Shown here: positions 49,233-58,243 of the stretch, one piece after another | Layout: each line of letters opens with the position of its first letter | Position numbering within the stretch: the stretch's first letter is position 1 | Source: Deltaproteobacteria bacterium | GTDB taxonomy: Bacteria; Myxococcota_A; UBA9160; UBA4427 | Length of the DNA stretch: 64,000 nucleotides | Assembly (NCBI GenBank): GCA_019310385.1 | Contig: JAFDEK010000014.1 | Coordinates: forward strand, 833 to 64,832 | Direction: 5' to 3' | Notes under the pieces: model-generated | Database searches by the model: none | The model's input: the letters and a program-made list of their open reading frames with translations, nothing else | Told to the model about the DNA's origin: nothing | Position numbers and translations under genes: made by a program

Positions 49233-50579
49233 TCAGCCTTCTGCGAAAGTCCGCAGGATGAACCAGTAGAGGCCCAGGCCGCAGATTGCCGCGGAGGCGA
49301 TCTGCGAGGTCAGTCGATACCAGCGTCCTTCCGAAAGCCGCCTCGCTAGCTGCAGCAAGGGCCAGGCCAGCGCCACTACGGCGAGCTGGCCCACCTCGAC
49401 CCCGAGGTTGAAGCCGAAGAGGGCCGGCGCGAGGCGGGACGTGGGCAGCGACATCTCGGCGAGCACGCCCGCAAAGCCGAAGCCGTGCACGAGCCCGAAA
49501 GCGAAGGCCAGGGAGGTGCGAACCCGCGTGGGGCGGAGCGTGCGCGCGAGCAGCTGGAAGTGACACAGCGAGAAAAGGGAGAGACCCAAGAGGGTCGCGA
49601 CAGAGAGAACGCCATGACCGGCGAAGGCCAGCGCGCAGAGCAGGAGCAGGCCAAGGAGCGAAGCCGCGACGATGCGCGGGTCGCGTCCCGAGAGCAGCCA
49701 GCCGTTCTCCGCGGCGATCAGGGCCACGGAGAAGCCGATCACGGCTTCCACCGCCGCGGCCTCCGGATGCAGGAGCCCGAGCACGGCGAGGCCCAGGGTG
49801 ATGCTGTGGGCGATGGTGAAGCCCGTCACCAGGCCTGCGACCTGGCCCAGGCTTCCGGCAAGGAGCAGCAGCGCGAGGACGAAGGCCAGGTGGTCGTAGC
49901 CCGTGAGAATGTGCTCGATGCCGAGGAGGAGATACTGGTAGAAGGAGCTACCGGTGGGCTCCACGACGCCAGGGCTGCCATCGATCGCCTCGCCGCCCCA
50001 CCCGCCCAGCTTCCAGACTGGGGCGGCTTCGGTGAGCACGCGTTCCAGTCCGGTCGCTTCGCCACCGGCTCCGTCGTCACCAGCTCTGTCTTCACCGGCC
50101 CCGTCGCCACTGGCCCTGTCGCCCGAGGACACCCGTGCAAAGTGGAGATGGGACGGGGCGACGTCCAGGAAGATGCGGCTCTCGATGGCGCGCTCGCCGC
50201 TGGCCCGGCAATCCAGCCGCCATTGAAAGGCGATCCAACCCTCCGCTGCGGGACGGGGCGTTGGCGGTGCAGCCGGAGAGCAGAGCTCGTCGTCGACTCG
50301 CAGCCCAAGCCGGCTCAGCAGATAGCGAGCGATGTTGCTGGACGGTCCAGGCGCCGAAGGGCGTGCGGCCTCGGCGCCGGTCAGTGGAAGCCGCGTGAAG
50401 TCGAGGCGCGAGACCCGCACGCTCACTTCCGCGCCCGCTTCGTCGAACTCCCAGCTCGAGTAGGAGATGCTGCGGCCGTGGGCATGGCTCGGCGCGGGTG
50501 CCGCGGCAATGTGCGCGAGGCCGAGCGCGAGCGCGATCATCGCGGACGCGCAGGAGGGTGCCAACCTCACCCCTCTCAT
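49233..50579 (-). CDS. HupE/UreJ-family membrane protein with periplasmic N-terminal domain
   Basis: Signal peptide ending AHG; GIEHILTGYDHLAF, FTIAHSITL, FGLVHGFGFA, FNLGVEVGQ. Confidence 0.9.
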   Translation of the reverse strand: MRGVRLAPSCASAMIALALGLAHIAAAPAPSHAHGRSISYSSWEFDEAGAEVSVRVSRLDFTRLPLTGAEAARPSAPGPSSNIARYLLSRLGLRVDDELCSPAAPPTPRPAAEGWIAFQWRLDCRASGERAIESRIFLDVAPSHLHFARVSSGDRASGDGAGEDRAGDDGAGGEATGLERVLTEAAPVWKLGGWGGEAIDGSPGVVEPTGSSFYQYLLLGIEHILTGYDHLAFVLALLLLAGSLGQVAGLVTGFTIAHSITLGLAVLGLLHPEAAAVEAVIGFSVALIAAENGWLLSGRDPRIVAASLLGLLLLCALAFAGHGVLSVATLLGLSLFSLCHFQLLARTLRPTRVRTSLAFAFGLVHGFGFAGVLAEMSLPTSRLAPALFGFNLGVEVGQLAVVALAWPLLQLARRLSEGRWYRLTSQIASAAICGLGLYWFILRTFAEG

Positions 50580-50857
50580 CGGCTCACCGGGTCGACCATG
50601 GAACTCTCGTTGCCATCGCTCTTCGTCGTCATGTGGGCGCGGGCCTATTGTTCACCACGCCGACCCATTTGTCGCCGGTCCATTCGCAAGAGTGGGGCGC
50701 CCACCCATCAGGGTGGCGGGGTCCGTAGACCGGCAAAACCCATGCTGCGGAGCCAGTTCGAGGTGAGATTTCAGGAGTTGAGAGCGACTTTTCGATAGTT
50801 GGGGAAGACAGACTTGCGCGATCTCGAATCTGGGCTATATTTGTAAGATCGTCACCG

Positions 50858-50886
50858 AAAAAGCCCGCCAACCCGGCGGGCTTTTC
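50858..50886. terminator. Bidirectional intrinsic terminator
   Basis: AAAAAGCCCGCC-AACCC-GGCGGGCTTTT with T-tracts on both strands. Confidence 0.85.
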
Positions 50887-50891
50887 TCGTT

Positions 50892-51197
50892 CTAGGATTC
50901 GGAATCGGAGGCGATGAGGCGGCCGTGCTGTAGGCCGTTACGAAACTCCGCCTGCACGCGCTTCAGGCCGTTCGCGTACCAGCGTGTCCAGACGCCGACC
51001 CGCAGCCCTTCTCGGAACTCGCCCGCTGCGGAAGGTCGCCCGTTGTCGTGCCACTCCGCGTACCAGCCGTGCTTGAGTCCGGCGCGTTCGCTCGTGAGCT
51101 CGCACCACTCCTCGAAGGCCGCCGGCGGCGGGGCTCCCCTGCGTTGGGTACCCGCAGGGCAGTCCGGGCTGAGGCGGGCTCGTCTCTCCGCGCGGTA
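50892..51197 (-). pseudogene. 5'-truncated MORN-variant repeat (YwqK-like) gene remnant
   Basis: Frame reads PDCPAGTQRRGAPPPAAFEEWCE..KHGWYAEWHDNG..GEFREGLRVGVWTRWYANG..EFRNGLQHG-stop; in-frame TAA upstream and no start codon for the N-terminal part. Confidence 0.7.
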
Positions 51198-51301
51198 TTA
51201 ATGCGAACGTGTTCGAATTAAAAAATGAAGTCCGCAGGGCGCCTGGTGTCTTCACTCGCTTGAAGGGCTGGGGTCGGTCGAGCTGTGATTGCGATTTTCT
51301 C

Positions 51302-51359
51302 TTGAAATCGAAATCCATTTTCGATAAAACCTGAAGTTCTTAATGAAAATGGTTTTCAT
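51302..51359 (+). promoter_or_regulatory. Sigma70 promoter overlapped by tandem Fur-box-like operators
   Basis: TTGAAA-N17-TAAAAC (51302-51330); ATGAAAATGGTTTTCAT (51343-51359) and TCGAAATCCATTTTCGA (51308-51324) resemble the deltaproteobacterial Fur consensus WTGAAAATGATTTTCAW. Confidence 0.8.
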
Positions 51360-51435
51360 TTCCTGTCGAGTTCCATCGCGCTCCTCGCCCTGACCGGTCG
51401 CGGAGCGTATCGAGCACGATTCCGAGGAGACGAGC

Positions 51436-52749
51436 ATGATGACGAGAAGCACCGCCCGAATTGGGCTGGTGGTCTTTGCGGTAATGGCCCTGGCGGGGCC
51501 AACCGTGGCGAGGGGCGGCGACGCCACGAACGACGCGAAGATCGAGAAGCTCGAGGAGCAGCTCGCGGTGCTCGCCGAGGAGATCGACAAGCTCCGCAAA
51601 GAGGAGGCGGTCCCGGAGAAGAAGCCGCTCGTGAGTGAGTGGGGCCTCGGTCCGGCGGCCTCGAAGGTCTACCAGAAGGAGCGCGGCGTCTCCATCGGCG
51701 GCTACGGCGAGATCGCCTTCCGGGGCTTCCTCGACGACTCGGCGCCCGACGGCAAGAACAACGTCTTCGACGCCGTGCGCGCCGTCCTCTACGCCGGCTA
51801 CAAGTTCAACGACAACTGGGTCGTCAACGGCGAGTTCGAGTTCGAGCACGCCGGCACCGGCGGCGGCGGCTCGGTCTCGGTCGAATTCCTGACCCTCGAC
51901 TTCCTCTGGAAGGACCCGCTCAACCTGCGCGGGGGCCTGCTGCTGATCCCCATGGGCTTCATCAACGAAATGCACGAGCCCACGACCTTCTACAGTGTGC
52001 AGCGACCGGAGACGGAGCGGCGCATCATCCCCAGCACCTGGCGCGAGAACGGCGTGGGCATCTTCGGCAGGTGGGGCGATCGGGTGACCTACCGCGCCTA
52101 CGCGGTCAACGGCCTGGACGGAACGGGCTTCGACGAGACCGGCCTGCGCGGCGGCCGCCAGAAGGGGAGCGAGGCCCTCGCCAACGATTGGGCGGGCGTC
52201 GGGCGAATCGATATCGACGTCTGGCGCGGCATCGAGTTCGGCGGCTCGGTCTACGCGGGGAACTCGGGGCAGAGTCAGTCGTTGAACGGCCTCGAGGTGC
52301 CCGACCTCTTCACCACGATCTGGGAGGTCCACACCCAGTGGGAGGGCTATGGCGCGAAGATCCGGGCCCTGTACAGCGAAGCCTACGTGACGGACACCGC
52401 CGCGTTCAATGTCATCAAGAACGTCGGCGTCCCCCCGGCCGACCAGGACTTCCTGGCCGAGACCATGAGGGGTGGCTACGTCGAGGCGGGCTATGACATC
52501 ATGCCGCTGATGCTCCCGGAGACGCGGATGTCACTGTCGCCCTTCCTTCGCTACGAGTACATCAACACCCAGGCCGAGATGGCCGCGGGCTTCGATCCCA
52601 ACGAGGCGCTGGTGCGGGACATCATCACGGCGGGCTTGAACTACAAGCCCATTCCGCAGGTCGTCGTCAAGCTCGACTACGAGAACACCATGCCGAAGGG
52701 CGAGGACGACATCCACGTGATCCAGTTTGGCCTGGGTTACGTCTTCTAG
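51436..52749 (+). CDS. Outer-membrane beta-barrel porin (OprO/P-like) with N-terminal coiled coil
   Basis: Signal peptide, KIEKLEEQLAVLAEEIDKL coil, amphipathic strands, EFEFEH and NEMHEP motifs, C-terminal GLGYVF beta-signal. Confidence 0.8.
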   Translation: MMTRSTARIGLVVFAVMALAGPTVARGGDATNDAKIEKLEEQLAVLAEEIDKLRKEEAVPEKKPLVSEWGLGPAASKVYQKERGVSIGGYGEIAFRGFLDDSAPDGKNNVFDAVRAVLYAGYKFNDNWVVNGEFEFEHAGTGGGGSVSVEFLTLDFLWKDPLNLRGGLLLIPMGFINEMHEPTTFYSVQRPETERRIIPSTWRENGVGIFGRWGDRVTYRAYAVNGLDGTGFDETGLRGGRQKGSEALANDWAGVGRIDIDVWRGIEFGGSVYAGNSGQSQSLNGLEVPDLFTTIWEVHTQWEGYGAKIRALYSEAYVTDTAAFNVIKNVGVPPADQDFLAETMRGGYVEAGYDIMPLMLPETRMSLSPFLRYEYINTQAEMAAGFDPNEALVRDIITAGLNYKPIPQVVVKLDYENTMPKGEDDIHVIQFGLGYVF

Positions 52750-53377
52750 CAGGAAGGCGGTCGCGGTCGCGGCCGTCGGTCTCGCGCTCGGCGGGCTCCT
52801 CCCGGAGCCCGCCAGCGCGAAGGTCTTCCTGAGCCAGGAGGAGGCGCTGACCCTCGCCTTCCCCGAGGCCGACCGCAGCGAGAAGCAAACCCACGTCCTG
52901 TCGCCGGAGCAGGTCGAGCGGATCCAACGCCGGGCGCGAGCCAGGCTCGAGTCCAAGCTCGTTAGCGTCCACAGCGGCTGGCGGGGCGAAGTGCTCCTCG
53001 GCTACGCCTTCATCGACGTACACCGGGTGCGTACGCAGGCGGAGGCGCTGCTCGTGGTTCTGGGACCGGCGGGCGAGCTGCGCTCGGTGCGGGTTCTCGC
53101 CTTTCACGAGCCCCTCGATTACCTTCCTTCCGATCGCTGGTATGGGCAGTTCGAGGGGAAGCCGTCCGACGATGCCTTCCGCGTCGGTCACGATGTCCAC
53201 GGCATCATGGGGGCCACGCTCTCGGCCCGCGCCACGGCGGACGCGGTGCGACGCTCGCTGGCGTTCTACGAGGTGCTGGTTCGAGGCGCCCAAGAGCCTT
53301 CGGTACACGACCAGCCGACGATCAGGAAGACAGACCAGGAAGACCGAGCAGAAAGAGAGACCAGGAAGAGCGAGTAG
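52727..53377 (+). CDS. Exported FMN-binding (flavinylation-target) domain protein
   Basis: Signal peptide ASA-K; HRVRTQ, LAFHEP.DY, QF.GK, GIMGATLS. Start uncertain. Confidence 0.78.
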   Translation: MAWVTSSSRKAVAVAAVGLALGGLLPEPASAKVFLSQEEALTLAFPEADRSEKQTHVLSPEQVERIQRRARARLESKLVSVHSGWRGEVLLGYAFIDVHRVRTQAEALLVVLGPAGELRSVRVLAFHEPLDYLPSDRWYGQFEGKPSDDAFRVGHDVHGIMGATLSARATADAVRRSLAFYEVLVRGAQEPSVHDQPTIRKTDQEDRAERETRKSE

Positions 53378-53398
53378 GAAGTCCGGGGGGTCTATCGC

Positions 53399-53935
53399 GT
53401 GCGCTTCGTCATCACCGGGGAGTGGGCGCGGAACCGTCTGCTCCAGACCATCGTGGTCCTCTACAGCGCCTACGTGGGCCTGCTCTGGATCACCAACGCG
53501 CTTCTCTACTTCCAGAAGATGAGCCTCGCTCCGGCCTCGGTGGTGGCCTACTACCTGGGCAATGAAGAGCAGTTCCTGCTCCCCCGCACCTACCAGGGGC
53601 TGCTCGAGGTCGCTCACTTCCATCTCTTCGCCATCGGGATGCTGCTGCTCGTCTTGACCCACCTCATGCTCTTTATTCCGGCCCGCCAGGGCCTCAAGGC
53701 CTGGCTCATCGCGCTGCCCTTCGTGTCGGGCATCATCAGCGAATCGGGGGGCTGGCTCGTGCGCTTCGTCAGCCCCCACTTCGCGCTGGTCAAGATCGGC
53801 GGCTTCCTGCTGCTCCAGACCAGCTTGCTCGTTCTCGTGCTCGTCTCGCTCTGGGCCACCTTCACGCCCGAGCAGGCGGTGAACTACATCGGGCCCCTCG
53901 ACGACGAGGACGACGAGGATGACGAGCTCGACTGA
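53399..53935 (+). CDS. Uncharacterised 4-TM membrane protein with HxH...H motif
   Basis: About four hydrophobic helices; EVAHFHLFAIGMLLLVLTH; acidic tail DDEDDEDDELD. Confidence 0.75.
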   Translation: MRFVITGEWARNRLLQTIVVLYSAYVGLLWITNALLYFQKMSLAPASVVAYYLGNEEQFLLPRTYQGLLEVAHFHLFAIGMLLLVLTHLMLFIPARQGLKAWLIALPFVSGIISESGGWLVRFVSPHFALVKIGGFLLLQTSLLVLVLVSLWATFTPEQAVNYIGPLDDEDDEDDELD

Positions 53936-54968
53936 TCCGCGGCACCGGGCGCGCGCTCTCGCGCTCCCCATCGTCGCGCTCATCGCCGCCGCCTGCTCGT
54001 CGACAGCGCCGACGGCGCCCTTCTCCCTGGTCAGCGACGGCCGCCCCTTGATGGGGACGGTGCTCGAGCTGAGCGTCGTCGCCCGGGACGCGGCCGCGGC
54101 CCGGGAGTGGATCGCCGACGCATTCGAAGAGGTGGGGCGACTCGAGGCGTTGCTCTCGCGCTTCGATGCCGAGAGCGACGTGAGTCGGCTGGGCCGGGCC
54201 GCGGGCCAGGGGTCGCTATCCGTGGACCCGGCGACCCGCGACCTGCTCGATCGGGCGCTGAAGGGAAGCGCCCTGACCGGGGGCGCCTTCGATCCCACCG
54301 TCGGCCCCCTGATCGAGCTGTGGGAGAGGACGGCGCGGGAGGGTCGCGTGCCTGCGCCCCGGGAGCTGGAGGCCGCGCGGGAGCGGGTCGGCGCCCAGCT
54401 CGTCCGGCTGCCCTCCGAGGCGAGCGCCGAGCTGCGGCGCGCCGGCATGTCCATCGATCTCGGCGGAATCGCGAAGGGCTACGCCCTCGACCGGCTCGCC
54501 ACGTCCCTGCGCGAGGCTGGCGCGAAGGGCGCTCTCTTGAGCTTCGGCCAGAGCAGCGCCTGGGCGCTCGGGTCGCCGCCCGACGCTCCGCGTTGGAAGC
54601 TGCTCCTACGCGCGCCTTCCGGCGGATGGGCGGGCGTGGTCGAGCTGCGCGATCAGGCCATGTCCATGTCGTCGAGTCTGGGACAGTGGAGCGAGATCGA
54701 GGGGCGGCGCTACGGCCACGTGGTGGACCCGCGCAGCGGGCGTCTCCTCGAGCGCGGCATCGAGGCCGCGGTGGTGGGTCCCGATGCGACCTGGGCCGAG
54801 ATCCTCAGCACGGCGTTGCTCGTGCTGGCAGAAGGAGACGGACTGGCGCTGATGGAAAGACTCGAAGGTTGCGAGGCGATGCTCATCGACGCGGAGGGTC
54901 GGGTGGCGATGACATCGGGCTGGGAGAGCGCTACCCGCTTCCGCGGCGTAGATCTACCGGCACAGTGA
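53919..54968 (+). CDS. apbE: FAD:protein FMN transferase (ApbE family), divergent paralogue
   Basis: Lipobox AAAC; MGT, GAFDPTVGPL..LW, DLGGIAKGY, HVVDPRSG. Confidence 0.88.
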   Translation: MTSSTDPRHRARALALPIVALIAAACSSTAPTAPFSLVSDGRPLMGTVLELSVVARDAAAAREWIADAFEEVGRLEALLSRFDAESDVSRLGRAAGQGSLSVDPATRDLLDRALKGSALTGGAFDPTVGPLIELWERTAREGRVPAPRELEAARERVGAQLVRLPSEASAELRRAGMSIDLGGIAKGYALDRLATSLREAGAKGALLSFGQSSAWALGSPPDAPRWKLLLRAPSGGWAGVVELRDQAMSMSSSLGQWSEIEGRRYGHVVDPRSGRLLERGIEAAVVGPDATWAEILSTALLVLAEGDGLALMERLEGCEAMLIDAEGRVAMTSGWESATRFRGVDLPAQ

Positions 54969-54974
54969 GGCGGG

Positions 54975-55166
54975 TCAGGACGCGCTTCCCTCGTGGGCCT
55001 CGTCTCGCTTCGTCGCGCAGGCCCTGCGGCGCTCCTCGCTGCACTCGCAGCCTTCTTCCGTGCCGCCACAGGAGCCTCTCAGACTGCGGCCCGTGGCGAT
55101 GACGCCGATCGCCATGATGCCGACGACGGCGAGGAAGAGGACGAGGGTTGCGAAGAAGGTCTCCAT
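54975..55166 (-). CDS. nqrM: Na+-NQR maturation factor NqrM
   Basis: Single TM, MAIGVI..GR.LRGSCGG..CEC; follows nqrF-apbE. Confidence 0.85.
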   Translation of the reverse strand: METFFATLVLFLAVVGIMAIGVIATGRSLRGSCGGTEEGCECSEERRRACATKRDEAHEGSAS

Positions 55167-55208
55167 GACGCCGTAGGATAGCGCCCCGGGTCTGCCCAGG
55201 GAAAGGGC

Positions 55209-56354
55209 TCAGTGATCCCTGTGGGTGTCGCCCGGCGTTCCCGGGCTCTCGCCGCCGACCGCGGCACCGAAGGCCGCCGTCGCGATGCTCCGGAAGCTGC
55301 CGTCGGGCTCGCGGACGATGAAGAGGGCGCCGAGGCCATGTTGCTCGGCGACCGCCAGGCCGCGTTGGAGCCCGAGAACGTTGAGAGCGGTTGCCAGTGC
55401 GTCGGCGCGCACGGCTTCGGGGTGCAGGATGCTCACCGAAGCGACGCCGTGGCGAATGGGCTCGCCCCGGCGCGGATCGATGGTGTGGGAGACGCGCTCG
55501 CCGCCGACTTCGTAGTAGTTACGGTAGTCGCCCGAGGTAGCGATCGCCGTGTCGCGCAGCTCGATGATTTCGTGGATGCTCCTGGCCGCGCCATCCTCGG
55601 GGCGCTCGATCGCGACCCTCCAGCCGCCGCCCTCCCGCTTGCGCCCCCGGGCGCGCAGCTCGCCCCCGACTTCGACGAGGAAGTTCTCGTAGCCGAGCTC
55701 CACCAGTCCCTCGGCTATCCGATCGACGCCATGGCCCTTGGCGATGGCGGAGAGATCGCAGGTGGTGTCGGGCTCGGTCTTGCGCAAGGTTCCCGCCACC
55801 TCGTCGAGCTCGATCTTCCAGTAGCCCACCCGCTCGCGCAGGGCGGCGAGCTCCGCCGTGGCGGGTGGCTCGGGCAGCCGGTCGGTGGCGCCGAAGCCCC
55901 ACGCCGCCACCAGGGGCGCCACGGTGACGTCGAAGGCTCCCCCGCTCAGGTCGCTGACCTCCCGCGCGGCGCGGAACACCGCCAGGGTCTGGGGCGAAAC
56001 CGCGAAGGGCTCGGTGGAGTGGTGGCGATTGAAGCGCGACAGCTCCGACTCGGGACGCCAGGTGGACATGAGGGCCTCCACCTCTTCGAGGCGCCCCTCG
56101 ATCTCGGCCGTGATGCGCGCCTGGGCCCCGGCCTCGAGGCTCTCCTCGGCGAGCTTCACCGACCAGGTGGTCCCCATGGTGGCGCCCGCGAACTCGAAGT
56201 AGGGCAACCCGGGCGCCGCACAGTGGAGGCGGTAGACCGAGAGTGCAAGGAGGCCCAGGATGCAGAGCGGAAGCGCCAGCTTCGCCCGGCCGCTCAAGCC
56301 GCCACCCGACCCTCTCTTTGCGGATCCGCGGCCGGAGTCAGCCGCCGAAGTCAT
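55209..56354 (-). CDS. apbE: FAD:protein FMN transferase ApbE (nqr-associated)
   Basis: [48 protein letters not shown]. Confidence 0.93.
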
Positions 56355-57564
56355 CGAAGAGGACGTTCTCCCGCTCGACGCCCAGATCCGTGAGCATCTG
56401 GATCACGGCGTCGTTCATCATGGGCGGACCGCAGATGTAGTATTCGCAGTCCTCGGGAGCCCTGTGGTCCTTGAGGTAGTTGTCGTAGAGAACCTGGTGG
56501 ATGAAGCCCGTGAGACCCGTCCAGTTGTCCTCTTCGAGGGGCTCCGAGAGGGCGAGATGCCACTGGAAGTTCTCGAACTCGCTCTGGATCGAGTCGAAGT
56601 CTTCGATGTAGAAGGCCTCGCGCAGGGAGCGGGCGCCGTACCAGAAGCTCACCTTGCGCTGCGATGCGAGCCGCTTGAACTGGTCGAAGATGTGGGAGCG
56701 CATGGGCGCCATGCCCGCGCCGCCGCCGATGAAGATCATCTCGTTGTCGGTGGGCCGTGCGAAGAACTCGCCGAAGGGGCCCGAGATGGTCACCTTGTCG
56801 CCGGGCTTGAGGCCGAAGATGTAGGAGGACATCTTGCCGGGCGGAACGTCGGGCATGCGCGGGGGCGGCGAGGCGATGCGGACGTTGAGCATGATGACGT
56901 CCTTCTCGTCGGGATAGTTCGCCATGGAGTACGCGCGCAGAACCGTCTCGTCCACCTTGGAGACGTAGCGCCACACGTCGAACTTGTCCCAGTCCTCCCG
57001 GTACTCCTCCTCGACGTCGAAGCCCTTGTAGGAGACCTCGTGGGGCGGGCACTCGATCTGGATGTACCCGCCGGCCCGGAAGGGGACCTCCTCGCCCTCG
57101 GGCAGCTCGAGTACGAGCTCCTTGATGAAGGTGGCGACGTTGTGGTTGGAGCGGACGGTGCACTGCCACTTGCGGACGCTGAAGACCTCGGCGGGGATCT
57201 CGATCTTCATGTCCTGCTTGACCTTCACCTGGCAGGCGAGGCGGCAGCCTTCCCGGGCCTCACCGCGGCTGATGTGGGTCTCCTCGGTGGGAAGCAGCGC
57301 TCCGCCGCCATCGAGAACCTTCACCTCGCACACGCCGCAGGTGCCCTGTCCGCCGCAGGCGGAAGGGATGAAGATCTGGTTGTCCGCCAGGGTTCCGAGC
57401 AGGGTCCCCCCCGCCGCGGTCTTCAGGGAGTGCTCGGGGTCGTCGTTGATCACGATCTCGACGTCGCCGCTGGCCACCAGCTTCGACTTGGCGAATAGCA
57501 GCACCACCACCAGCGCCAGGATGACGACCGTGAATCCGATCACACCGAAGATTATTGTCCACAT
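56338..57564 (-). CDS. nqrF: Na+-translocating NADH:quinone reductase subunit F
   Basis: [17 protein letters not shown] [2Fe-2S], [28 protein letters not shown] end. Confidence 0.97.
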
Positions 57565-57631
57565 TTTCGCGCCACCTCTTACCTGGTACCTGGATGCTGC
57601 CGCTCTTGCCTGGATGCTGTCGCGGGTCGTC

Positions 57632-58243
57632 TCAGAGCTGGATTCCCGAGAAGGCCATGAAGCCGATGGACATCAGTCCCACGATGATGAAGGTCACCCC
57701 GAGCCCGCGCAGGGCGGGCGGGACGTTGCTGTAGCGCAGCTTCTCGCGGATGGAGGCCAGCGCCACGATGGCGATGGCCCAGCCGATCCCCGACCCGACG
57801 CCGAAGACGGTCGCCTCGCCCAGGGTGTAATCGCGCTCCACCATGAAGAGCGAAGCGCCGAGGATGGCGCAGTTCACTGCGATCAGCGGCAGGAACACGC
57901 CCAGGGCGTTGTAGAGCCCCGGCGAGTAGCGGTCGAGGGCCATCTCCACGATCTGCACCATGGCCGCGATGGTCCCGATCAGGGTGAGGAAGCTCAGGAA
58001 GCTGAGATTCACGTCGCCGAGCCCCAGCCACGACAACGCCCCCTCTTCGAGGAGGACCTTGTTGAGGAACTGGTTCAGCGGACAGGTGACCGCCAGCACG
58101 AAGATGACGGCTCCGCCCAGACCGATCGCGGTCTCGACCTTCCTGGAAACGGCTAGGAACGAGCACATCCCCAGGAAGAAGGCCAGAGCCATGTTCTCAA
58201 CGAAGATTGCCTTCGTAGCCAGGCTCAAGAAGTGTTCCAACAC
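57632..58243 (-). CDS. nqrE: Na+-NQR subunit E
   Basis: [29 protein letters not shown]. Confidence 0.96.

Follow-up and report, generated by a model that had tools for sequence, protein, structure and literature searches.

A candidate Fur-controlled flavinylation operon with an uncharacterised membrane protein and its own outer-membrane protein in a Deltaproteobacteria bacterium

We analysed a 64,000-nucleotide stretch of DNA (hereafter the window; contig JAFDEK010000014.1 of assembly GCA_019310385.1) from a Deltaproteobacteria bacterium, and in it an operon of four co-directional genes at 51436-54968 on the + strand. The genes encode, in order, an outer-membrane protein (OMP), an exported protein with a flavin mononucleotide (FMN)-binding domain, an inner-membrane protein with four transmembrane helices (4-TM protein) and an ApbE flavin transferase. 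We consider it somewhat probable (roughly 55%) that the operon encodes a Fur-repressed, flavin-based ferric reductase of the periplasm together with an uptake module, which would feed FeoB. The cassette has an invariant core with a Fur box upstream, and it was found across many sampled genomes of the phylum. An earlier reading of the letters alone (the original prediction) had described four tightly packed co-directional genes, and this was borne out by the coordinates and junctions of the open reading frames (ORFs), which overlap or nearly abut: the OMP and FMN-protein genes overlap by 23 bases, a gap of 21 bases separates the FMN-protein gene from the 4-TM gene, and the latter overlaps the ApbE gene by 17 bases.

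Research on iron uptake has been concerned mostly with siderophores and their TonB receptors, or with FeoB alone. To our knowledge, the way in which Fe(II) is supplied to FeoB in oxic or micro-oxic Gram-negative bacteria that have no obvious ferric reductases is poorly understood. If the interpretation given above is true, it would define a new family of membrane redox proteins, provide a function for Pfam family PF27139 and explain the 'hypothetical Fur-regulated porin' that was noted in 2004.

Fur boxes and the conserved gene cluster

A putative sigma-70-type promoter, TTGAAA-N17-TAAAAC, was read directly from the sequence at 51302..51330 (+), in which TTGAAA occupies 51302-51307 and TAAAAC 51325-51330, the 17 bases between them (51308-51324) forming the spacer. 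The spacer, TCGAAATCCATTTTCGA, is itself a palindrome with the arms TCGAAA/TTTCGA (palindrome 1, 51308..51324, strand not assigned), and on visual inspection looks like the site that precedes bfd in this genome. Just 3' of the expected transcription start lies the stronger box 2, ATGAAAATGGTTTTCAT (51343..51359, strand not assigned), a palindrome with perfect 7-base arms. It agrees with the core TGAAAATNATTTTCA at 13/14 bases, and differs at one position from the 17-bp delta-proteobacterial Fur box WTGAAAATNATTTTCAW, a consensus which was derived from the regions upstream of feoAB and fur (Rodionov 2004, PMC545781). The promoter and both boxes are located in a 200-base AT-rich island (51200-51399) with a GC content of 47.5%, versus about 68% in the surroundings.

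The distribution of such sites in the organism's own genome was narrow. ATGAAAATGGTTTTCAT occurs a single time in the 4.93-Mb, 68%-GC genome, with sequences of three or fewer mismatches at only two other places, and the 14-base core was found within three mismatches at only 14 places. Those core-like places that are situated in AT-rich intergenic DNA precede feoAB (14/14), the operon described here, bfd, bfr and a MerR-like gene. The perfect copy, TGAAAATGATTTTCA, is found at C167:7989 (L003 3989-4003), where it separates feoA-feoB (− strand) from a cation-efflux (CDF) gene that is transcribed divergently; this single box in the feoAB/CDF interval may control both directions. A Fer2_BFD gene and a ferritin-family (bacterioferritin-like) gene are preceded by weaker boxes, at C99:81 and C99:532 (L005) and at C41:25535; an overlap of contigs C41 and C99 is suggested by an identical site at the end of C41. 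A Fur-like site of 11/14 in AT-rich intergenic DNA at C93:21175 (L004 4176-4190) stands upstream of a gene for a MerR-family regulator, which is followed by one for a VWA-domain protein. One further core-like place falls on the start codon of a gene that by eye is of the acyl-CoA-dehydrogenase type, and is probably due to chance. When E. coli-type and Bacillus 7-1-7 Fur boxes were sought in the genome, no good sites were obtained beyond those that fit the delta-type. The genome, which is 88% complete, contained one Fur-family gene, and the protein that it encodes carries the HHDH motif typical of Fur.

Related loci were collected in two sets, giving 160 loci. The genome set comprised the best 80 of 370 matches to a close alignment of the 4-TM protein in species-representative genomes, almost all of them labelled Myxococcota or 'Deltaproteobacteria' metagenome-assembled genomes (MAGs). 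The metagenome set comprised the best 80 of at least 537 matches to an alignment of distant homologues, and is taxonomically mixed with a GC content of 31-76%. All linkage fractions below are given over testable loci. A site of at least 11/14 was present in 52/60 related genome loci between positions -450 and +30 relative to the estimated start of the OMP gene, compared with 5/1093 control windows of equal size drawn from the same loci. In 24/80 genome loci the OMP gene has, upstream of it and on its own strand, a fur gene whose product is 62-69% identical to the Fur of the organism studied here; in 21 of those 24 no more than about 1 kb separates this fur gene from the estimated start of the OMP gene. 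The original prediction had placed a second Fur-like palindrome just past the start site and had proposed control by Fur. Both proposals were supported: the 13/14 match, its conservation in 52/60 loci, the delta-type boxes before feoAB, bfd and bfr and the fur gene adjoining orthologous operons indicate, from sequence comparison, that the operon is very probably under Fur control.

The order of the genes was likewise conserved. The FMN-protein gene is directly upstream of the 4-TM gene in 75/75 genome loci (in L027 the pair overlaps by 18 bases), and an OMP gene was found upstream in 62/63. An ApbE gene on the same strand directly follows the 4-TM gene in 58/76; another 13/76 have no ApbE of their own but are adjoined by a convergent nqr-type ApbE, and 5/76 have neither kind. 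Since the nqr-type ApbE is the only one beside the cassette in those 13 loci, this arrangement suggests that one ApbE can serve both the cassette and the nqr system. Among metagenome loci the FMN-protein gene is upstream of the 4-TM gene in 69/69, an OMP gene is present in 38/40 (35 on the same strand and 3 divergent), and ApbE was encoded in the locus in 16 of the 28 that were fully testable (12 upstream of the OMP gene and 4 downstream). The gene-neighbourhood search that had been proposed earlier for co-occurrence of the four genes and upstream Fur boxes returned the expected pattern. A match to the 4-TM profile was detected in 130/401 sampled genomes of the phylum and in 22/25 of the window's own family, and 4-TM matches of the cassette occur on hundreds of metagenome contigs.

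The four proteins of the operon

The second gene (52727..53377, +; TTG start) encodes a 216-amino-acid exported protein, a probable FMN_bind protein of the RnfG/NqrC-like type, with a cleavable-looking signal (A-S-A, then K) that leaves about 185 residues. Its motif D156-V-H-G-I-M-G-A-T164 contains G162-A163-T164, and T164 is the predicted site of flavinylation; the published flavinylation motif is [S/T]-G-A-[S/T], with Thr or Ser as the acceptor (Meheust 2021, PMC8238504). The family profile matched RnfG of Acetobacterium (9eri_G) with E=4.8e-6, and in this alignment T164 coincides with the flavinylated Thr. T164 is retained in 153/154 relatives, the remaining row being gapped at this position. 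All 22 of the 22 relatives compared with PF04205 matched it at E<=0.1 (best 4.5e-7), and a model of the protein made with AlphaFold2 (AF2), having a predicted local distance difference test score (pLDDT) of 77.9, gave RnfG or NqrC as each of its 18 top Foldseek matches. The GAT flavinylation-like motif that had been pointed out in an exported protein is therefore present and is aligned with the RnfG acceptor Thr.

The fourth gene (53919..54968, +) encodes a 349-amino-acid ApbE flavin transferase with a lipoprotein-like signal (...LIAAAC). It scored 208.5 bits against PF02424 (cut-off 25.6) over model positions 1-266 and so belongs to this family, which agrees with the earlier claim that the cluster carries its own ApbE. 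The alignment of T164 with the RnfG acceptor Thr, the ApbE gene of the operon and the existence of 4-TM-ApbE fusions support the view that these genes form a flavinylation module.

The third gene (53399..53935, +) encodes a four-helix inner-membrane protein of 178 amino acids that belongs to Pfam PF27139 (Aq_1264_TM), a family of no known function. The label, which is a precomputed Pfam assignment, is carried by the protein in the window and by all 120 listed homologues, and the corresponding Atlas clusters are 99-100% PF27139. Its AF2 model (pLDDT 92.2) showed four long helices. Six residues, Y52, G54, E70, H73, H75 and H88, are invariant in 160/160 loci, and K100 is kept in 157/160, with Arg in the remaining three. 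A membrane protein of unknown function with His residues had been described from the letters alone, and this description was accurate. The positive-inside rule and the ApbE fusions together would place E70, H73 and H75 at the periplasmic end of transmembrane helix 2 (TM2) and H88, 13 residues further on, near its cytoplasmic end. The fusions came from a scan of ten longer representatives of a 50%-identity set, which revealed three 4-TM-ApbE fusions and one double-4-TM-ApbE fusion. Ahead of the ApbE domain the 4-TM-ApbE fusions have a basic linker and one extra hydrophobic segment, and the latter fits a 4-TM protein that has both its N- and C-terminal ends in the cytoplasm while ApbE is periplasmic.

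Tandem relatives with eight transmembrane helices (n=13; P0260, P0281, P0283, P0301, P0312, P0318, P0330, P0332, P0345, P0358, P0365, P0368 and P0371) were informative with regard to these His residues. Repeat 1 keeps H73 and is devoid of H75 and H88 in 13/13, while repeat 2 keeps H75 and H88 in 13/13 and has H73 in only 2/13. Such a complementary loss is expected if the single-domain protein is a dimer with a site made from H73 and H75' of the partner, and it points to a cofactor site at a dimer interface, to which one subunit would contribute H73 and the other H75. The geometry of an H73/H75 interface can be likened to that of haem b of succinate dehydrogenase. It is also similar to that of the haem sites that FezC is proposed to form as a homodimer (Huang 2024, PMC11334425). 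Tandem form P0330 additionally carries ApbE.

Searches for known relatives of the 4-TM protein gave little. None of 37 family members matched the Pfam models PepSY_TM, MsrQ, DUF4405, DsbD, NapH and NqrB/RnfD at E<=1, and a profile search of PDB with the 4-TM alignment produced no match. A Foldseek search with the 4-TM fold found nothing at E<=0.001, the best hit (E=0.77) being to MAPEG-type four-helix proteins and not meaningful. A search of the Atlas with PF27139 excluded returned no usable match and no other named family. Prediction of a complex between the 4-TM protein and the mature flavoprotein, one of the checks proposed earlier, gave a score of 0.40 against 0.01 for the best of three controls, and weakly supports an interaction. 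At least 86% of the contacts were shared between runs, with a partner pLDDT of at least 86. The mark used for this score was reached by 58/80 solved complexes and 2/110 mismatched pairs, and scores that passed it at 0.60 or below comprised only 7 of the 80 solved complexes and both of the passing mismatches.

Two further observations concern the 4-TM family. P0265 (417 amino acids, one member, on a 3.5-kb contig) combines the 4-TM domain in one chain with a FeoA domain and with the metal-binding domain known from DtxR-type iron-dependent repressors, which could be a further link to iron or an artefact of assembly or gene calling. Many Myxococcota genomes (e.g., G017, G047 and G160) gave partial profile matches over positions of about 58-161 with E values of 1e-9 to 1e-23; the ORFs concerned are of 200-400 amino acids, several with one in-frame stop, and may belong to a related family in which helices 2-4 are shared.

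The first gene (51436..52749, +) encodes a 437-amino-acid outer-membrane beta-barrel protein, in which a signal peptide is followed by a coiled coil in the N-terminal part and the C terminus reads ...GYVF. The protein matched PF13505 (OMP_b-brl) with 28.8 bits, just over the cut-off of 28.7. Among 16 relatives, OMP_b-brl was matched in 10, BBP2 in five and Porin_O_P (phosphate-porin family PF07396) in four. No match to the Plug or TonB_dep_Rec families was obtained even at E<=10, which places the protein outside the TonB receptors, and the genome's two Plug-domain genes are both on other contigs. The original assignment as a beta-barrel porin of TonB-independent type is consistent with these results. 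A profile search of PDB with the OMP alignment found nothing significant. The protein is unusually conserved for a porin: 45 residues are invariant across 33 non-redundant relatives at 32-46% identity, including E133, E135 and E137, which occupy alternate positions of one strand, as well as E150, H180, E181 and E194, and an invariant N-terminal motif, G70...A75...Y79. The acidic strand E133-x-E135-x-E137 suggests a selectivity for cations or iron.

Proposed mechanism and competing explanations

In the mechanism that we propose, Fur would leave the box at 51343-51359, and perhaps the weaker spacer box as well, when iron is low, and the four genes would be transcribed together. The OMP would act as a dedicated TonB-independent channel through which iron, or a small ferric complex, reaches the periplasm, where ApbE, a predicted periplasmic lipoprotein, would attach FMN covalently to T164 of the RnfG/NqrC-like protein. 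A dimer of the Aq_1264-family 4-TM protein would hold a cofactor, most likely one haem b, in a site formed by H73 and the partner's H75 near the periplasmic face, with H88 and K100 near the cytoplasmic face. With the quinol pool or a cytoplasmic donor as its electron source, this dimer would supply the flavoprotein, which would then reduce Fe(III) to Fe(II). The Fe(II) would be imported by FeoAB, whose genes lie elsewhere and are preceded by a perfect copy of this Fur box; no second clear FeoB locus was found in the genome. The original prediction had likewise combined entry through a porin, reduction by a flavoprotein and supply of electrons by the membrane protein. In that scheme Fur control, the flavinylation module and the co-occurrence of the genes are now supported by sequence comparison, whereas every biochemical step is one that we infer from the Fur-box match and its conservation, linkage, gene identities and residue conservation. 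A broader version would see here a widespread, self-contained reductive iron route spanning the envelope, with a cation-selective porin and with Aq_1264_TM, a dimer holding one interface cofactor and fed from the quinol pool, as a sixth class of flavinylation-linked electron conduit, and would make this route together with FeoAB the main siderophore-independent one in many uncultured Myxococcota; we put this forward tentatively, as a possibility with the odds somewhat against it.

A number of observations weigh against the proposed mechanism. A consensus scan of 50600-55400 reported 0 promoters and 0 terminators, and the promoter was thus not recognised. This result is uninformative because the scan rule demands a T at position 6, the last, of the -10 hexamer. 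A sigma-70-type promoter at 51302-51330 is plausible without support from the scan, and from the earlier claim of a TTGAAA-N17-TAAAAC promoter the hexamers and the spacer stand, while a listing by the scan was not obtained. Palindrome 1, which had been regarded as a first Fur-like site, does exist as a palindrome, but its standing as a Fur box is uncertain: it agrees with the TGAAAATNATTTTCA core at 10/14 bases (at 51309), two separate sites of at least 10/14 occur in only 8/60 related loci, and an excess over chance was not demonstrable. The delta-type box was also less clear in the metagenome set, where a site of at least 11/14 was found in 14/34 loci against 75/1067 control windows, as would be expected if other phyla in this mixed set use other Fur boxes. 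The related loci are best-match kin and not independent samples, and their counts describe conservation. No ApbE was encoded nearby in 12/28 metagenome loci. Clustering of the neighbouring genes of the 160 loci, in search of a further partner or transporter, yielded only fur, nqr and lineage-specific housekeeping genes, which leaves the conserved cluster with no iron transporter. The flavoprotein itself scored 16.8 bits against PF04205, below the cut-off of 22, and position -3 of its motif is Met and not Ser or Thr; either of the latter occupies this position in 17/76 relatives of the genome set and in 53/78 of the metagenome set. Finally, the 4-TM protein matched no known cytochrome or electron-transfer family (Pfam, PDB, Foldseek and Atlas), its tandem forms keep three His only, which are too few for two bis-His haems, and H88 has no symmetric partner, so that a classical two-haem transmembrane wire is unsupported.

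The scarcity of His residues in the tandem forms would also suit a 4-TM protein that is a permease for ferrous iron or another metal, in which E70, H73 and H75 form the periplasmic entrance and H88 and K100 the exit, the electrons for the flavin being supplied from elsewhere. The clustering of invariant Glu and His residues at one end of one helix with another His at its other end, as well as the lack of any other importer in the conserved cluster, can be read in the same way. We nevertheless hold a permease to be unlikely, as it would leave the flavoprotein without a linked electron source even though its gene and the 4-TM gene are an invariant pair (75/75 and 69/69). The recurrent 4-TM-ApbE fusion better fits a partner of the flavoprotein, the genome already has FeoAB behind a Fur box for the import of Fe(II), and a four-helix bundle of 178 amino acids matches no known metal-transporter fold. 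Alternatively, the flavin carrier might replace an iron-rich periplasmic carrier such as a cytochrome when iron is short, in the manner of flavodoxin for ferredoxin, and serve some other redox reaction. Fur-repressed flavoproteins that substitute for iron proteins are known, Fur control of flavodoxin has been predicted for Desulfovibrio (PMC545781), flavinylated and cytochrome modules are described as being used interchangeably (Meheust 2021, PMC8238504), and a cluster without an iron transporter would be in keeping with such a swap. What it leaves unexplained is the nearly obligatory dedicated OMP (62/63 and 38/40), the conserved acidic, lumen-type strand of this protein and the frequent adjacency of fur. 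Neighbour clustering, moreover, detected no linked and conserved terminal oxidoreductase, and we judge iron sparing to be quite unlikely.

The close association of the OMP and flavoprotein genes, which are almost always adjacent and overlap here, could also be taken to mean that the two proteins form a conduit across the outer membrane, a flavin analogue of the porin-cytochrome complex MtrAB. Ferric minerals outside the cell would then be the electron acceptors, whether for assimilation or for respiration, in place of iron reduced within the periplasm. The periplasmic coiled-coil extension of the OMP and its invariant G70...A75...Y79 could dock a partner, and an outer-membrane location of a flavinylated protein has been mentioned (Huang 2024, PMC11334425). 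The OMP, however, has no [S/T]GA[S/T] motif in its sequence, and a protein of about 185 residues with a single FMN cannot bridge the outer membrane, which makes a conduit of this kind very unlikely. There is, lastly, the question of which regulator binds the palindromes. Actinobacterial Zur boxes are very similar to TGAAAATGATTTTCA, and a second Fur paralogue could have escaped a MAG of 88% completeness; a different Fur-family or unrelated regulator that senses zinc, manganese or peroxide would mean that the module answers a signal other than iron. This is the least probable of the alternatives considered, given that the sites in the genome itself precede feoAB, bfd and bfr, all of them iron genes, that the only Fur-family protein found has the Fur-typical HHDH and its orthologue adjoins the operon in 24/80 loci, and that the consensus was built from the regions upstream of feoAB and fur in delta-proteobacteria. 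Reading the palindrome as a Zur box was rejected on account of its occurrence before feoAB, bfd and bfr and of the fur genes adjacent in related loci.

Relation to known systems and genomic surroundings

The operon resembles the published iron-assimilation clusters in which ApbE is encoded with an exported substrate and an inner-membrane partner (Meheust 2021, PMC8238504; Huang 2024, PMC11334425). The clusters compared were those with PepSY-like/DUF2271/DUF4198, MsrQ-like and P19/FTR1 components, as far as these are set out in the main texts. They have in common with the operon a logic in which electrons pass from a membrane source to a covalent flavin and on to an extracytosolic acceptor, with links to iron and Fur, and PepSY-like clusters have been reported to be Fur-repressed (Huang 2024, PMC11334425). 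When class membership is judged by a match of the membrane component to the class-defining Pfam family (Meheust 2021, PMC8238504), the 4-TM protein is outside the five published classes, i.e., NapH-like, MsrQ-like (PF01794), PepSY-like (PF03929/PF16357), DsbD (PF02683) and NQR/RNF-like, and outside DUF4405/FezC. A dedicated non-TonB OMP belongs to the cassette, whereas the word 'porin' is absent from the main texts of both papers.

FezC and the DUF4405 membrane cytochromes offer another parallel: they are of small size, conservation in them is highest at His residues of transmembrane helices, they are tied to ApbE or iron handling, and the haem sites of FezC have been proposed to form by homodimerisation (Huang 2024, PMC11334425). 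Unlike these, the 4-TM family has four helices with all of its conserved His on one helix, and its binding of haem is a prediction only. No similarity between the two was detected by sequence, Pfam or language-model comparison. The flavoprotein is like RnfG and NqrC in its predicted fold, its probable FMN_bind domain, its aligned Thr and its likely maturation by ApbE, but it is a stand-alone exported protein encoded outside any rnf or nqr operon, a genuine NqrC being encoded elsewhere in the window. In contrast to Rnf and Na+-NQR, the 4-TM protein proposed as its partner has no relationship to RnfD or NqrB.

With regard to the OMP, psp was described as a hypothetical porin that has a tandem pair of delta-type Fur boxes ahead of it in Geobacter metallireducens and Desulfuromonas, that bears a weak likeness to phosphate-selective porins (PF07396) and whose homologues occur in Aquifex aeolicus and in uncultured bacteria (Rodionov 2004, PMC545781). 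Both are porins preceded by a Fur box, PF07396 is the family matched by 4/16 OMP relatives here, and the 4-TM family takes its name from the Aquifex protein Aq_1264. The OMP may belong to the same family as psp, the two having been compared by description only. In the 2004 report psp appears as a single gene, with no flavoprotein, 4-TM protein or ApbE partner mentioned (PMC545781). The searchable literature, which for Meheust 2021 and Huang 2024 means the main texts, contained no description of the function of aq_1264/PF27139 or of a Fur-porin-FMN-ApbE cassette, in agreement with the earlier statement that no named system has exactly this gene set. On present sequence evidence, what is new here is an uncharacterised membrane component together with a porin of its own in a flavinylation-type system, and these two features set the cassette apart from the known ones.

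A few observations concern the surroundings of the operon. Between the promoter and the nearest upstream gene there are about 720 bases (50580-51300) with no ORF that matches Pfam, and the GC content is lowered to about 60% at 50600-50999. A remnant of NnrU was sought in this gap by tblastn and none was found, though relatives (e.g., L009) have an NnrU gene there. An Rfam search of 50500-55300 gave a chance-level match only (STnc420, E=0.3), and a search of sequencing runs with this stretch brought up no RNA run among its matches, the shares being small (best 0.18). Downstream, and transcribed towards the cassette, is the end of an nqr operon (54975-58243, −), with a 63-amino-acid NqrM-like ORF (PF04400 at E=1 only), a second ApbE (297 bits), NqrF and NqrE. 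The gene upstream of the gap (49233-50579, −) is divergent from the operon and encodes a 448-amino-acid HupE/UreJ_2 membrane protein (136.7 bits); HupE/UreJ_2-like matches were obtained by tblastn upstream of the cassette in 11/80 related genome loci, one of the 11 being weak at 48 bits.

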